DNA of 24,748 nucleotides from Thermoproteales archaeon (GCA_027002815.1 JALWZH010000031.1:1-24748); one strand, 5' to 3'. Numbered from the stretch's first letter, positions 10,307-15,867 are shown. The notes: generated from the letters alone by a model not told the origin. Translations and numbers: made by a program.

Positions 10307-10588
10307 ATGAGCTCGATACAGGGGGGCTGCGAGCTCTCCTCGCACGAGTCCAAACACCTCCGGGAGTTCCTCAAGTGTGTGAAGGATACAATGATGGGCG
10401 TCCGTGTGGTGGAGATAGACAACGGCCAGAGATATGCGTACGGCCTGTACGTCGAGGGCGAGGCGGAACAGTTGGTGAGGCTCCTCTCCTCGCTCCCAGG
10501 TAGCGTGGTCAGGGAGATGTCTGGGGCTACATGGGTGATACTTAACGGCGGATCGGAAGTGGTCATCGTGAGGGGCGTTAGGGCGTAG
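10307..10588 (+). CDS. Small hypothetical protein immediately upstream of crenactin (arcadin-1 position in the Arcade cluster)
   Basis: 93-aa ORF, co-oriented with crenactin and ending 42 nt before its ATG. The assignment as arcadin-1 rests on position only. I cannot verify sequence similarity from memory. Confidence 0.5.
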   Translation: MSSIQGGCELSSHESKHLREFLKCVKDTMMGVRVVEIDNGQRYAYGLYVEGEAEQLVRLLSSLPGSVVREMSGATWVILNGGSEVVIVRGVRA

Positions 10589-10598
10589 GCGTACAGCC

Positions 10599-10610
10599 AA
10601 TATTTTTATC
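10599..10610 (+). promoter_or_regulatory. Crenactin TATA-like box
   Basis: aatatttttatc is centred about 26 nt upstream of ATG 10631. Confidence 0.5.
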
Positions 10611-10630
10611 GGATCCCCCCAGTGGCTGTC

Positions 10631-12573: not shown

Positions 12574-12716
12574 TGGATAAAATAATACTGGAGGAAATAA
12601 GGAGGGCCTTGGACGGAGAGGACGCGGAGCTGGCGGTGCGGCTTTATATGGCGTACAGGGAAAGGGGGAGGAAAGGCGTAATGGAAGTGGTGGAGGAGCT
12701 GTTGCGCGGTATATGA
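12570..12716 (+). CDS. 48-codon helical micro-ORF translationally coupled to both neighbours (possible arcadin-3 position)
   Basis: MMDKIILEEIRRALDGEDAELAVRLYMAYRERGRKGVMEVVEELLRGI*. Its ATG overlaps the upstream TGA (ATGA at 12570-12573). Its TGA overlaps the downstream ATG (ATGA at 12713-12716). It is below the ORF-track cut-off. Confidence 0.45.
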   Translation: MMDKIILEEIRRALDGEDAELAVRLYMAYRERGRKGVMEVVEELLRGI

Positions 12717-15169
12717 AGGCCAGGTGGACCATAAGGCGGGTGGCCATGGAGAACTTCAGGGCATATAAGGGCAGACATGAGCTTGAGTTTGGCCAGGGCA
12801 TGACGTTGTTGCATGGCCGCATAGGCGCGGGCAAGACGAGCATCTTCTACGCTATAGAATACGCGCTTTTCGGCTCCGTCATGGAGACCAAGGAGAGGGT
12901 TGCGCGGCTCACGGACCTAATATCAGAGGGGAGGGACTTCGCGTTGGTGGAGGTGGAACTGGCTAATGGGGACGGGTCCACGCTACTCATAAGGCGGGTG
13001 TTGAGGAGCAGCGGGGCCGAGAGGGTTGAGGGTGCCGTGGACGGGAGGATTATAAGGTCCGAAAGGGACCTTAAGGCCGCGGTCAAGGGGCTGCTCGGCA
13101 TCGACGACGACCTTTACGAGAGGGCAATATACGTGTCCCACCGCTCCCTCGAGGCGCTCCTCCACGGCCCACGGCAAAGGCGTACCCTTGCAATAGACAG
13201 GCTGTTCGGCGTTGACGCCGTTGAGGGCCTGCTCAGAAGCCTGCCCCTAGACTCGGTAACGGAGAGGTTGCAACGTGAAAGGGATAGGCTTGCAGCGATA
13301 GAGGCCCGCAAAGAGGTAATAGAACGGTATGGCGGCATAGATGGCATGAGGGGGCGCCTTGCCGAGATCGAGGGGGAGATGTCGCGTATACGCAGGTCGA
13401 TCGAGTCGCTTGAGGCTGAGAGGAGACGCCTGTTGGAGGAAAAGGCTAGGGCGATGTCCTCAATTAGGGCGGGCCCCGAAACATATGAAAAGTATGTCCG
13501 TGCAAGGATGGAGTACGACGAGCTCAGGGACAGGCTGGACAGGCTGGGGGGATACCCCGCGCCGACGTTGGAACACCTAACGCTGCGCCTGGACTCGCTC
13601 AGGGCCAGGGTCCTGGAGGTGGCTGAGGAGGTGAGGCTCTTCCTGGACGGCCAAATACTGGACGAGCTGCGGCTAGCACAGCCAGAGCACATGGAGAAGG
13701 CGCTTGACGCCATTTACAAGGCGGTGAGGGACATAAGGGACTCCGTCCTGCCGAGACTTGAGGCGCAGCTGGAGGACATTAGGGATAGGCGGGTGGGAAT
13801 GGCAGGAGAACTGGAGTCTCTCAGCAGGGAGGTGGCGGCACTGGAGAGTAAGGTTTCCTCCGTATCCCACATGTACGAGGCCTACAGGAGGATATTGGGC
13901 AAGTGGGGCGACGTGTCCAGGCTGAGGGACGCCGTGGAGAGGCTGTCCAGCGAGGTGGCGGAGTTGGAGTCCCGCACGCTCCTCTCGCGGTCCCTGTACG
14001 TCGTGGCAAGGCACCTCGTGGAGACGCATGGCGAGGCCTGCCCGATATGCGGCAACAGGATAGACCCCGAGTCTGTGAGGAGGCGCTTCGACGAGCTGGT
14101 GGAAACATACATGAGGCTGGACGACGAGTTGAGGTCCAGGAGGGCCATGCTTGAAGAGGCCAGGAGCGAGCTGGGCGAATTGGAGCGCGTCTTGCCTGCC
14201 GTCAACGAGTACCTAGGATACCGCGAGGTCCTGGAGGACAGGCTGAGGTCCCTAGCGGAGCTGAAGAAGAGGCTGACTACTGCGGAGAGGTCCGCTATGG
14301 AGTTGGAGCGTAAGATTAGGAGGGTAAGGACATTGGTGGAGGAGGTGGAAAGGGAGCTTGGGGGGCTCGAGGCCGCCTATGAGGCCTACAGGATCAGGCG
14401 GCGGATCTCTGAGCTGGAGGCGGAGTTGAGGGAACATGAGGAAAGGCTGGAAGGCATGGGCGCGTCGCCGGGCGCCCTGGCCAGGATAGAAGAGGACTTG
14501 TCCCGCATAGACGGCAAACTGGAGGCGCAGTACAACGCCCTCAAGGCCCTCATGGCCGAGAGGGAGGCCATAATGTCGGTGCTTGTGCATGTAGGCGACG
14601 AGGACCTTGGGACCATAGTGAATAGGGCCGCGCGCCTCGAGGCGCTGCACGCGGCGCTGTTGAGGATACAAGGGGCGCTCAAGACGGCGCAGAGCAATGC
14701 GAGGCGCAGGGTGGTGGACGTGTTAAGGGACCACGTGGACTCCATGTTCGCGCAGCTTTACCCCTACGGCGATCTGAGGGGCGCCTATCTGGAGGCCGAG
14801 CCCCGCGGCGACAAGGTGTACTACCAGCTGTACGCGTTCTCCAGCGGCGCCGCGCGCCTCCCCATATCCAAGTTAAGCGATGGCCAGAGGCTGACTCTGG
14901 CCCTAGCCCTCGTCCTGGCCATATACAAGTCGGCCGACCACAACGTGGCGTTCCTACTCATGGACGAGCCAATACTATACGTGGACGAAAAGGTTAGGCG
15001 CACCTTTGTCGATGTACTGCGGAGGCTGCTGGAGAGCGGCATAGTGGCGCAGGTTGTGCTGGCTACTCAGTCGCGCGAGCTGGCGGACCAAGCTGCCCGT
15101 TCGGCGCCCTCTAAGATCGTGCAGATAATACGCGAAGGCTTAGAACCGCCTAAGTTGGGTTATCCTTAA
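12713..15169 (+). CDS. rkd-4: Rad50/SMC-like coiled-coil ABC ATPase with central zinc hook (arcadin-4-like)
   Basis: 818 aa. Walker A GRIGAGKTS (12815-12841), about 500 aa of heptad-rich Glu/Arg/Leu coiled coil, CPICG hook at residues 443-447 (12 nt CPIC = 14039-14050), signature LSDGQR (14873-14890), and Walker B/D-loop FLLMDEPILYVD (from 14951). GGAGGAG lies 13-19 nt upstream of the ATG. Confidence 0.85.
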   Translation: MKARWTIRRVAMENFRAYKGRHELEFGQGMTLLHGRIGAGKTSIFYAIEYALFGSVMETKERVARLTDLISEGRDFALVEVELANGDGSTLLIRRVLRSSGAERVEGAVDGRIIRSERDLKAAVKGLLGIDDDLYERAIYVSHRSLEALLHGPRQRRTLAIDRLFGVDAVEGLLRSLPLDSVTERLQRERDRLAAIEARKEVIERYGGIDGMRGRLAEIEGEMSRIRRSIESLEAERRRLLEEKARAMSSIRAGPETYEKYVRARMEYDELRDRLDRLGGYPAPTLEHLTLRLDSLRARVLEVAEEVRLFLDGQILDELRLAQPEHMEKALDAIYKAVRDIRDSVLPRLEAQLEDIRDRRVGMAGELESLSREVAALESKVSSVSHMYEAYRRILGKWGDVSRLRDAVERLSSEVAELESRTLLSRSLYVVARHLVETHGEACPICGNRIDPESVRRRFDELVETYMRLDDELRSRRAMLEEARSELGELERVLPAVNEYLGYREVLEDRLRSLAELKKRLTTAERSAMELERKIRRVRTLVEEVERELGGLEAAYEAYRIRRRISELEAELREHEERLEGMGASPGALARIEEDLSRIDGKLEAQYNALKALMAEREAIMSVLVHVGDEDLGTIVNRAARLEALHAALLRIQGALKTAQSNARRRVVDVLRDHVDSMFAQLYPYGDLRGAYLEAEPRGDKVYYQLYAFSSGAARLPISKLSDGQRLTLALALVLAIYKSADHNVAFLLMDEPILYVDEKVRRTFVDVLRRLLESGIVAQVVLATQSRELADQAARSAPSKIVQIIREGLEPPKLGYP

Positions 15170-15195
15170 ATAATGCAATGACCATGTTCGGTGTA

Positions 15196-15867
15196 ATGGA
15201 ATGCAGCGTCTTCATGTCCCTTGAGTACCTGGAAATAGACATAGTCAGGTACAGTCCCTCGGGGGTACAACACAGGAACATAAGGGTTGGGGGGCCTGGT
15301 ATAGAGGTGGAGAACGACAGGGGGCAAGTCCTCCAGATACCCGTCACCTCTATGGAGGACCTCCTGGGCAGGTTCAAGGACCTAGTGGCGGAAGAGCTGT
15401 CGCCCTGTAGCAGGATAATCATGCATATAGAGGACGCCCAGAGGACCGTAAGCTCCGCCTCTGAGATCTTGAGGCTGGTGGACTACGCCTCCATAATGTC
15501 GGCGGTGTCGCACATGTCCAGGCCCACCAGGATAACCATAATAGGCTACAGGGGACGCAGGCCGCATGTTCCACTACCGCGGGGCCACATACTCATGCAT
15601 AGGGTCGGCATAAAGAGGAGGTATATAAGGGACTACGAGGTGGGGCGCAAGATCATAAGCAGGATAGGCGGGTCCGAACGCGTGGTGGTAATAGGCCTGA
15701 GGACCGTGGAGGATAGGTACAGGGTGTTCGTGGTGGCCCGCCACGGCAGGAGGAGGCTCACCATCAAGCTGAAGAGGCCTCTCAGGCTCGAGACCTTCTA
15801 CGCATTGGCGTCCAGCATAATTGCGCGCGTCGACGGGCTTAAGTGGTACGAGGTTGCAACCGCGTAG
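15196..15867 (+). CDS. Hypothetical Arg-rich basic protein directly downstream of the Rad50-like ATPase
   Basis: 223 aa from ATG 15196, about 26 nt downstream of ccttaaataatgc (15164-15176), which overlaps the upstream stop codon. The C-terminal half is very basic (RGRRPHVPLPRGH, GIKRRYIRDYEVGRK, ARHGRRRLTIKLKRPLR). I recognise no family. Confidence 0.6.
   Translation: MECSVFMSLEYLEIDIVRYSPSGVQHRNIRVGGPGIEVENDRGQVLQIPVTSMEDLLGRFKDLVAEELSPCSRIIMHIEDAQRTVSSASEILRLVDYASIMSAVSHMSRPTRITIIGYRGRRPHVPLPRGHILMHRVGIKRRYIRDYEVGRKIISRIGGSERVVVIGLRTVEDRYRVFVVARHGRRRLTIKLKRPLRLETFYALASSIIARVDGLKWYEVATA

Follow-up and report, generated by a model that had tools for sequence, protein, structure and literature searches.

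The genomic stretch analysed here (JALWZH010000031.1, assembly GCA_027002815.1), which comprises 24,748 nucleotides from a Thermoproteales archaeon and is referred to as the window, had been said in a preliminary description, made from the sequence alone, to carry a complete locus of the archaeal actin cytoskeleton in the interval 10307-15867, with the actin-like crenactin and four co-oriented partner genes. This kind of cluster, named arcade and consisting of crenactin and arcadin-1 to arcadin-4, was reportedly described in Pyrobaculum calidifontis by Ettema, Lindas and Bernander in 2011. Open reading frame (ORF) calls, together with Pfam, NCBIfam and PDB matches, showed that crenactin and all four arcadins are indeed encoded in a single locus, extending from nt 9475 to nt 15169 (Table 1), and the gene calls on the 154-kb source metagenome scaffold (ENA ERZ23491050) match the ORF coordinates found here. 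We consider, with high confidence, that this region is the crenactin/arcadin cytoskeleton locus of a hot-spring archaeon that belongs to the Thermoproteaceae and has not been cultured. As already recognised in the preliminary description, the cluster as such is not new: it belongs to a described system, of which the window holds an additional, diverged copy arranged in a Vulcanisaeta-type layout. The family of the small ORF upstream of crenactin, here termed ORF93, is the sole element that may be new.

The locus was compared with other crenactin loci, among them those of Thermoproteus tenax (L003), Vulcanisaeta moutnovskia (L004), two Pyrobaculum metagenome-assembled genomes (MAGs; L005 and L012) and two of Thermocladium type (L006 and L020). 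The nearest genome is the MAG L001, whose crenactin is 94% identical. The ratio of nonsynonymous to synonymous substitutions (dN/dS) against L001, calculated at synonymous divergences (dS) of 0.28-0.62, was 0.05 for crenactin, 0.09 for ORF93, 0.12 for arcadin-2, 0.18 for arcadin-3, 0.12 for arcadin-4, 0.04 for the last ORF of the interval (ORF227) and 0.04 for arcadin-1. Purifying selection thus acts on every ORF of the interval (dN/dS 0.04-0.18), indicating that none of them is a chance ORF.

Table 1. Features of the crenactin/arcadin locus and of its immediate surroundings, with positions counted from the first nucleotide of the window.
Feature	Position	Strand	Basis
Arcadin-1 (108 aa from ATG 9801)	9475-9801	-	Pfam Arcadin_1, PDB 5LY5
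Alba DNA/RNA-binding protein	9984-10265	+	Pfam Alba (E 2.3e-17), NCBIfam AlbA (122 bits)
ORF93 (93 aa; unnamed family of 93-117 aa)	10307-10588	+	dN/dS 0.09, homologues directly upstream of crenactin
AT-rich box ATATTTTTAT	10598-10611	+	Read from sequence; ~26 nt before the crenactin ATG
Crenactin (434 aa)	10631-11935	+	NCBIfam NF053560, PDB 4CJ7/5LY3/5MW1
Arcadin-2 (203 aa, GTG start)	11962-12573	+	NCBIfam Rkd2, T. tenax orthologue
Arcadin-2 C-terminal 17 residues (PQFIKENQWVKVLRSRKR region), predicted crenactin-groove-binding helix	12520-12570	+	Alignment
Arcadin-3 (48 aa)	12570-12716	+	NCBIfam Rkd3, V. moutnovskia orthologue
Arcadin-4 (818 aa), SMC/Rad50-like ABC ATPase with long coiled coil	12713-15169	+	NCBIfam Rkd4, Pfam AAA_23, SMC_N
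Arcadin-4 CPIC zinc-hook motif (residues 443-446, coiled-coil apex)	14039-14050	+	Alignment
ORF227, uncharacterised, directly after arcadin-4	15184-15867	+	dN/dS 0.04; possible starts 15178, 15184, 15196 (227/229 aa)

Crenactin exceeded the equivalog cutoff of the NCBIfam crenactin model NF053560 (677.1 bits versus 630, E 9e-204), and its residues 8-434 aligned with positions 7-428 of the P. calidifontis crenactin chain in the solved structures (PDB 4CJ7/5LY3/5MW1; 622 bits, E 5.9e-186). Its ORF opens upstream, at a GTG codon at nt 10622. The AT-rich block that precedes it is kept in L001 and may be the archaeal TATA box from which a crenactin mRNA without a leader is made; its T-run may also terminate ORF93. 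Similar boxes lie about 26 nt before the starts of arcadin-1, Alba, ORF93, arcadin-2 and ORF227, and may all be TATA boxes of leaderless transcripts.

The three genes that had been noticed downstream, coding for a 203-aa protein ending in NQWVKVLRSRKR, for a micro-ORF product of 48 aa and for an 818-aa Rad50-like ATPase, all exist and correspond to arcadin-2, arcadin-3 and arcadin-4, respectively. Arcadin-2 starts at a GTG codon inside a longer ORF of 242 aa, 26 nt past the crenactin stop codon; it covers almost the whole Rkd2 model (positions 1-195 of 196; E 6.2e-27, 94.5 bits) and is 34% identical over 210 aa to its positional orthologue in T. tenax (E 3e-20). Its C-terminal end carries the motif P..I.[DE]N.W[VL].[VI]L, with an invariant Trp, which is shared by the arcadin-2 proteins of the window, L001, T. 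tenax, Pyrobaculum, Vulcanisaeta and Thermofilum, the core N-x-W-[VL]-x-[VI]-L being present in all six aligned sequences. Arcadin-3 matched positions 1-45 of the 56 of the Rkd3 model (E 2.6e-11, 43 bits) and is 52% identical to the positional orthologue of V. moutnovskia. Overlaps of 4 nt (ATGA) join arcadin-2 to arcadin-3 and arcadin-3 to arcadin-4. In the alignment, the 48-aa arcadin-3 of both the window and L001 stops before the acidic tail G-[IV]-[DE]-V-E-x-x-E-D, which is present in T. tenax, Pyrobaculum and Vulcanisaeta and is coded there by sequence overlapping the start of arcadin-4.

Arcadin-4 matched the Rkd4 model over positions 1-746 of 747 (607 bits, E 4e-182), whereas the best Rad50 model scored 169 bits. 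The Walker A (GRIGAGKTS), signature (LSDGQ) and Walker B (FLLMDEP) motifs are kept in 10 aligned orthologues, and the C-P/Y-x-C of the zinc hook is invariant in 10 of 10. Around residues 785-790 (VVLATQSRE) a Thr/Ser-Gln pair is found, whose Gln is likewise invariant in all 10 and occupies what we take to be the position of the H-loop histidine of Rad50 and SMC proteins. This substitution might imply an altered chemistry of ATP hydrolysis in the family.

With NF053560 at 677 bits and the arcadin-2, -3 and -4 models matched essentially over their full length, the proposed identity of the locus is supported, and two other identities can be weighed against it. The actin-fold protein could be an MreB, ParM or Hsp70-type ATPase, a grouping that the preliminary description had itself singled out for checking; some database records do call crenactin orthologues 'heat-shock protein Hsp70', and the Pfam Actin match is limited to residues 289-416 (31 bits). 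Those record names, however, are legacy automatic annotation, and the protein both clears the cutoff of the crenactin model and aligns with solved crenactin along 427 residues, while the second-best actin-type model, MamK, gives 42.6 bits versus a cutoff of 400. Judged by the NF053560 and PDB 4CJ7-set matches, such an identity is already refuted, and we regard it as practically excluded. Alternatively, the 818-aa ATPase might be the Rad50 with which the organism repairs its DNA, in which case the block would serve repair or chromosome maintenance and merely adjoin an actin gene. The protein does match Rad50 models (NF041034, 169 bits), SMC_N and AAA_23, and it has a CxxC zinc hook; but the Rad50 models, at 169 bits or less, are all far under their cutoffs and compare with 607 bits for the full-length arcadin-4 model, no Mre11, HerA or NurA gene was found adjacent to it, its place after arcadin-3 is kept in ten crenactin loci, and the H-loop position holds an invariant Gln in the family alignment. 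A repair locus is, thus, very improbable. Homologues of the flanking genes, whose absence had been named as the other point to be checked, were found next to crenactin elsewhere, with arcadin-2, -3 and -4 orthologues in Thermoproteus, Pyrobaculum, Vulcanisaeta and Thermofilum, so that this objection falls as well.

The fifth gene of the system, arcadin-1, was located outside the interval first described. It matched Pfam Arcadin_1 (PF18653; E 5.9e-38, 129.7 bits versus a cutoff of 25) and PDB 5LY5 (E 3.1e-39), is 46-60% identical to the positional arcadin-1 genes of L003, L004, L005 and L010, and its ORF is open back to a TTG codon at nt 9825. It lies directly after RpoK, approximately 830 bp upstream of crenactin, and is divergent from the rest of the cluster. 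The interval 10307-15867 alone, therefore, is not the complete cluster: it contains four of the five canonical genes within six ORFs, including the additional ORF227. The description of one co-oriented block is accurate for these six ORFs, all on the + strand and, where listed earlier, at the places given for them, but not for the cluster as a whole, since arcadin-1 is encoded on the minus strand. A co-oriented arcadin-1 immediately upstream of crenactin, as in Pyrobaculum and Thermoproteus, was not observed in the window, this being a trait of the layout and not of the family. Between arcadin-1 and ORF93 stands Alba, which is a conserved neighbour and not an arcadin; it adjoins the cluster in T. 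tenax, V. moutnovskia, L011, L014, L016 and L017, and lies about 3 kb off in Thermofilum.

Comparison of the loci pointed to two layouts. The order crenactin, arcadin-2, -3, -4 is common to T. tenax, the two Pyrobaculum MAGs, V. moutnovskia, L011, L013, L014 and Thermofilum pendens. Upstream of it, Pyrobaculum (L005, L012) and T. tenax (L003) have a co-oriented arcadin-1 located 5-29 nt before crenactin; V. moutnovskia (L004), L011, L014, L016-L018 and the window have instead the series thermosome, RpoK, arcadin-1 (minus strand), other genes in some cases, Alba, a small + strand gene, crenactin and arcadin-2/-3/-4. Downstream, the window continues from arcadin-4 with ORF227, a TrmB-family regulator (minus strand) and a radical-SAM protein, as T. 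tenax does, and Pyrobaculum has the same order without ORF227. The window locus thus combines a Vulcanisaeta-type upstream half with a Thermoproteus-type downstream half, so that its gene order could be near the ancestral one.

With the P. calidifontis cluster, the window locus shares the same five families, the order of crenactin and arcadin-2/-3/-4 with overlapping or abutting frames, the C-terminal Trp helix of arcadin-2, and the ATPase motifs and zinc hook of arcadin-4. It differs in having arcadin-1 approximately 830 bp off, on the opposite strand and behind Alba and ORF93, in an arcadin-3 that lacks the acidic tail, in the extra ORF227 after arcadin-4, and in sequence, the identity being approximately 63% for crenactin, 29-34% for arcadin-2 and 28-33% for arcadin-4. 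With the Vulcanisaeta-type loci (L004, L011, L014, L016-L018) it has the upstream gene order in common, but their Alba gene is on the minus strand (+ in the window), in V. moutnovskia arcadin-1 and Alba are separated by extra genes, which code for a 165-aa protein and for an Arf/Roc-like GTPase, their small upstream gene stands between a 1 nt overlap and a 6 nt gap from crenactin (42 nt gap in the window), and the region downstream of the cluster in the window, with ORF227, TrmB and radical SAM, resembles instead that of Thermoproteus and Pyrobaculum.

How the encoded proteins may work together can be proposed from the P. calidifontis homologues. In that organism crenactin forms F-actin-like double-helical filaments, arcadin-2 binds crenactin with a dissociation constant (Kd) of 31 nM, its peptide 187-203 binding the hydrophobic groove and depolymerising the filaments, and arcadin-1 forms oligomers, probably octamers, which bind crenactin with a Kd of 15 uM and have no effect on polymerisation (Izore et al. 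2016, PMC5173319). By analogy, crenactin of the window would bind ATP and polymerise into actin-like double-helical filaments, and the C-terminal Trp helix of arcadin-2 would enter the hydrophobic groove of crenactin and rival the D-loop of the next subunit, with the result that monomers would be sequestered and filaments depolymerised; we infer that this sequestering mechanism may also operate at the window locus. Arcadin-1 would be an oligomeric weak binder of crenactin. The Rad50-like ABC ATPase arcadin-4 probably forms dimers, held together by the zinc hook and by the heads when engaged with ATP, and would represent a long tether or scaffold, while the small, helical arcadin-3, translationally coupled to it, is probably its partner.

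The groove-binding step has counterparts in eukaryotic actin, whose monomers are sequestered by thymosin beta-4 and WH2 domains, and in the ParM-ParR pair, in which, by analogy, a short helix of a partner protein placed in the hydrophobic groove of the actin fold controls polymerisation (PMC5173319). Arcadin-2 is nevertheless unrelated to these partners in sequence, and the similarity may be convergent according to the authors of that study (PMC5173319). Arcadin-4, for its part, resembles the Rad50/SbcC/SMC ABC ATPases in its split ABC head, long antiparallel coiled coil and CxxC zinc hook, but represents a separate family (Rkd4), is coupled to arcadin-3 and has no Mre11-type nuclease nearby; Rad50 has His where arcadin-4 has the Gln of the H-loop position.

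Besides the canonical genes, the interval begins with ORF93, which is a real gene; its product is small, conserved and of alpha/beta type, and two of its cysteines are invariant. The invariant positions in the family alignment (A3) are C8, R19, C24, D38-N39-G40, Y48 and E50. Homologues were found upstream of crenactin in L001, L010 (99 aa), L004/L018 (110 aa in V. moutnovskia), L011/L016 (117 aa in L011), L014 (113 aa), L017 and L019, with pairwise E values of about 1e-4 to 4e-23 in small local searches. The family thus stands immediately upstream of crenactin in eight distinct lineages, Vulcanisaeta included, at distances from an 11 nt overlap to a 44 nt gap, the gap being of 42-44 nt in the window and L001; in all eight, arcadin-1 is displaced from the slot directly before crenactin. 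A local hidden Markov model of the family recovered, in 20 loci, those crenactin-upstream ORFs and nothing more. In the Pyrobaculum, Thermoproteus, Thermofilum, Thermocladium-type and L013 loci, the sequence up to 8 kb from crenactin contained no copy. In the metagenome contig of L010 (JGI 3300020567, 7038-9017) the ORF93-family gene, crenactin and arcadin-1 lie compactly on one strand.

Searches with the ORF93 sequence retrieved no Pfam, NCBIfam or PDB sequence match, and single-sequence searches of 5.8 billion proteins (word-indexed) and of 1.8 billion representatives (exhaustive phmmer) returned the query alone, the family being too divergent for this kind of search. A single-sequence AlphaFold2 (AF2) model, with a predicted local distance difference test (pLDDT) value of 72, consists of a helix, two strands, a helix and three strands, and Foldseek found for it no significant structural neighbour in the PDB. 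No mention of the gene was found in the literature searched, which did not cover the paper by Ettema et al. (2011), where it could have been noted. A relationship to Roadblock/LC7 proteins was also considered, on the basis of the predicted alpha-beta-beta-alpha-beta-beta-beta order and of the Robl_LC7 genes near crenactin in Thermocladium-type loci, and was rejected: hhalign against Thermocladium Robl_LC7 gave a probability of 0.5%, and no roadblock structure was among the Foldseek matches.

From its position, ORF93 may be co-expressed with crenactin and be an additional crenactin-associated factor. More specifically, we tentatively put forward the ORF93 family as a possible sixth component of the archaeal actin system ('arcadin-5'), coupled to crenactin and occupying the slot before it where arcadin-1 has been displaced; we hold this proposal to be plausible and somewhat short of probable. 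The preliminary description had counted the small upstream ORF among the four cluster partners, a place that it does not take as a canonical gene, there being no similarity to arcadin-1. Were ORF93 a diverged arcadin-1, the interval 10307-15867 would be a complete canonical and co-oriented operon; indeed its size is near that of arcadin-1 (93 versus 108-128 aa), and its slot is the one that arcadin-1 occupies directly before crenactin in Pyrobaculum and Thermoproteus. Yet a bona fide arcadin-1 exists at 9475-9801 on the minus strand, ORF93 has no Pfam Arcadin_1 match even at E 0.1, hhalign of the ORF93-family and arcadin-1-family profiles gave a probability of 0.2%, and 5LY5 is not among the PDB matches of the ORF93 model in Foldseek, so that this identity is effectively refuted and has hardly any likelihood left. 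ORF93, ORF227 or both may otherwise be unrelated passengers, conserved through inherited gene order and with no role in crenactin function. The thermosome, RpoK, arcadin-1 and Alba block is likewise conserved though its genes are functionally unrelated, ORF227 is limited to T. tenax and the lineage of the window, Pyrobaculum having no such gene between arcadin-4 and TrmB, a separate TATA-like box precedes each gene here by about 26 nt, and neither ORF93 nor ORF227 has a detectable family or a confident fold. For ORF93 in particular, on the other hand, the family genes of L004, L010, L011, L014 and L016-L019 abut or overlap the crenactin start (from an 11 nt overlap to a 6 nt gap), the pair with crenactin persists in L010, amid rearranged surroundings in which arcadin-1 is downstream of crenactin and arcadin-2, -3 and -4 are not adjacent, and neither the loci nor the metagenome scan yielded a family member anywhere but beside crenactin. 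We regard the passenger explanation as a serious possibility that stops short of being likely.

Several points weigh against the picture of a crenactin-based system with ORF93 as one of its parts. Arcadin-2, -3 and -4 score under the NCBIfam equivalog cutoffs (94.5 versus 290, 43 versus 90 and 607 versus 860 bits), which are calibration thresholds for naming and not biological definitions; the low scores indicate a diverged lineage, whose crenactin is 62-65% identical to those of Pyrobaculum, Thermoproteus and Vulcanisaeta. All the mechanistic steps given above are carried over from the P. calidifontis proteins, and whether the system serves shape or division in vivo is unsettled in the literature (PMC10936438, PMC7617429). 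As to ORF93, much of its conserved adjacency to crenactin lies in a longer syntenic block with the unrelated thermosome and RpoK, which makes gene order weak functional evidence, and the 42-nt spacer with its own TATA-like box renders co-transcription in the window uncertain.

ORF227, the last ORF of the interval, is a real gene but not a canonical arcade gene, and its membership of the system is doubtful. A single homologue was found, in T. tenax, where a gene for 218 aa takes the corresponding place (24% identity, E 8e-11, full-length alignment), and ORF227 is not present at the Pyrobaculum and Vulcanisaeta crenactin loci; the homologue search returned the query alone, with no family match even at E 10. 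Judging by the conserved ECxVF at the N-terminus and by a TATA-like TTAAATAAT at 15166-15174, translation may in fact begin at the ATG at nt 15196. Its AF2 model (pLDDT 55) is unusable as a structure. At this low confidence, both ends (residues 4-72 and 153-216) are modelled as a sheet of four or five strands with a helix after it. The Foldseek matches were non-significant (template modelling score of 0.2 or less), the top ones being PUR-alpha repeats, which echo the four-strand-plus-helix pattern predicted at both ends and may give a hint, at most, of a PUR/Whirly-like nucleic-acid-binding repeat. No support was found for the idea that ORF227 is a CdvA or PRC-barrel-like protein.

In the region following the cluster (16032-18536), the TrmB-family regulator (minus strand, 249 aa, the ORF of 411 aa being an over-extension) is followed by the radical-SAM protein, which has an N-terminal Zn-ribbon_HMPTM domain; the same pair also follows arcadin-4 in Pyrobaculum and T. 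tenax. Between ORF227 and TrmB (15940-15990, + strand) a conserved block of approximately 50 nt, ggTGATGAgggtctggagttggcgcgcattgccggaacaacccgtCTGAcg, has a C box (TGATGA) at the 5' side and a D box (CTGA) at the 3' side. Unlike the intergenic sequence on either side of it, the block is kept in L001; it has no Rfam match and no notable fold (z -1.3), and is a candidate C/D box small RNA. An Rfam scan of window positions 9000-17000 at E<=1 gave zero matches.

A further conserved non-coding segment is the divergent intergenic region between arcadin-1 and Alba (9802-9983), which is 93% identical to L001 while the dS of the flanking genes is 0.36-0.6. It contains the inverted repeats AGGGTAAT/ATTACCCT (9900-9907 / 9939-9946) and CTTGTG/CACAAG. 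Its minus strand folds unusually well (z -4.0, equalled by no shuffle); two substitutions in L001 preserve pairing (G-U) on the + strand only. The region could represent constrained divergent promoters or a small RNA. An antisense ORF of 188 aa spanning Alba and ORF93 (10034-10600, minus strand), with a dN/dS of 0.13, was taken as spurious since its codons have their third positions at the same sites as the codons of the + strand genes, whereby a low dN/dS is expected, and it is without cross-lineage support.

Genes for small Arf/Ras/Roc-like GTPases and Roadblock/LC7 proteins were observed a few kb before crenactin in Vulcanisaeta (L004, 5778-6840) and in both Thermocladium-type loci (L006, 4239-7531; L020, 3386-7192). 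This GTPase/roadblock pair could be linked to actin, or the synteny could be coincidental. In the Thermocladium-type loci crenactin has no adjacent arcadins and is preceded by a conserved membrane protein of 102-107 aa.

The locus had been linked to the question of how Thermoproteales, an order without FtsZ or ESCRT-III, control their shape and divide, the arcade cluster being considered their most likely machinery for both (PMC7617429). The absence of FtsZ and of the Cdv/ESCRT-III system, on which that argument was built, holds for FtsZ, ESCRT-III and Vps4 but not for CdvA, since a 2024 survey reported in Thermoproteales diverged CdvA orthologues, two CdvA-related families and PRC-barrel proteins (PMC10936438). 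Because of these CdvA-like and PRC-barrel proteins, crenactin is no longer the only division candidate, and the claim that the locus is the leading one should be read accordingly: reviews still consider crenactin and the arcadins to be the most likely division machinery of the order (PMC7617429, PMC7613921), while the roles of arcadin-1, -3 and -4 are still unclear in the literature (PMC10936438).

To this question of division and shape the window locus adds nothing fundamental. Its diverged orthologues confirm the features that are conserved in the family, namely the Trp helix of arcadin-2, the zinc hook of arcadin-4 and the Gln at its H-loop position, and its arrangement shows that two layouts exist, the 'canonical' Pyrobaculum operon being just one of them. 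What the locus offers in practice is two candidates for experiments, the narrowly distributed gene after arcadin-4 and the conserved, unnamed small protein tightly coupled to crenactin in Vulcanisaeta-type genomes. If its proposed role is true, the latter, ORF93, would act on crenactin filaments, for instance as a nucleator, a capper or an adaptor to the membrane or nucleoid, beside arcadin-1 or replacing it.

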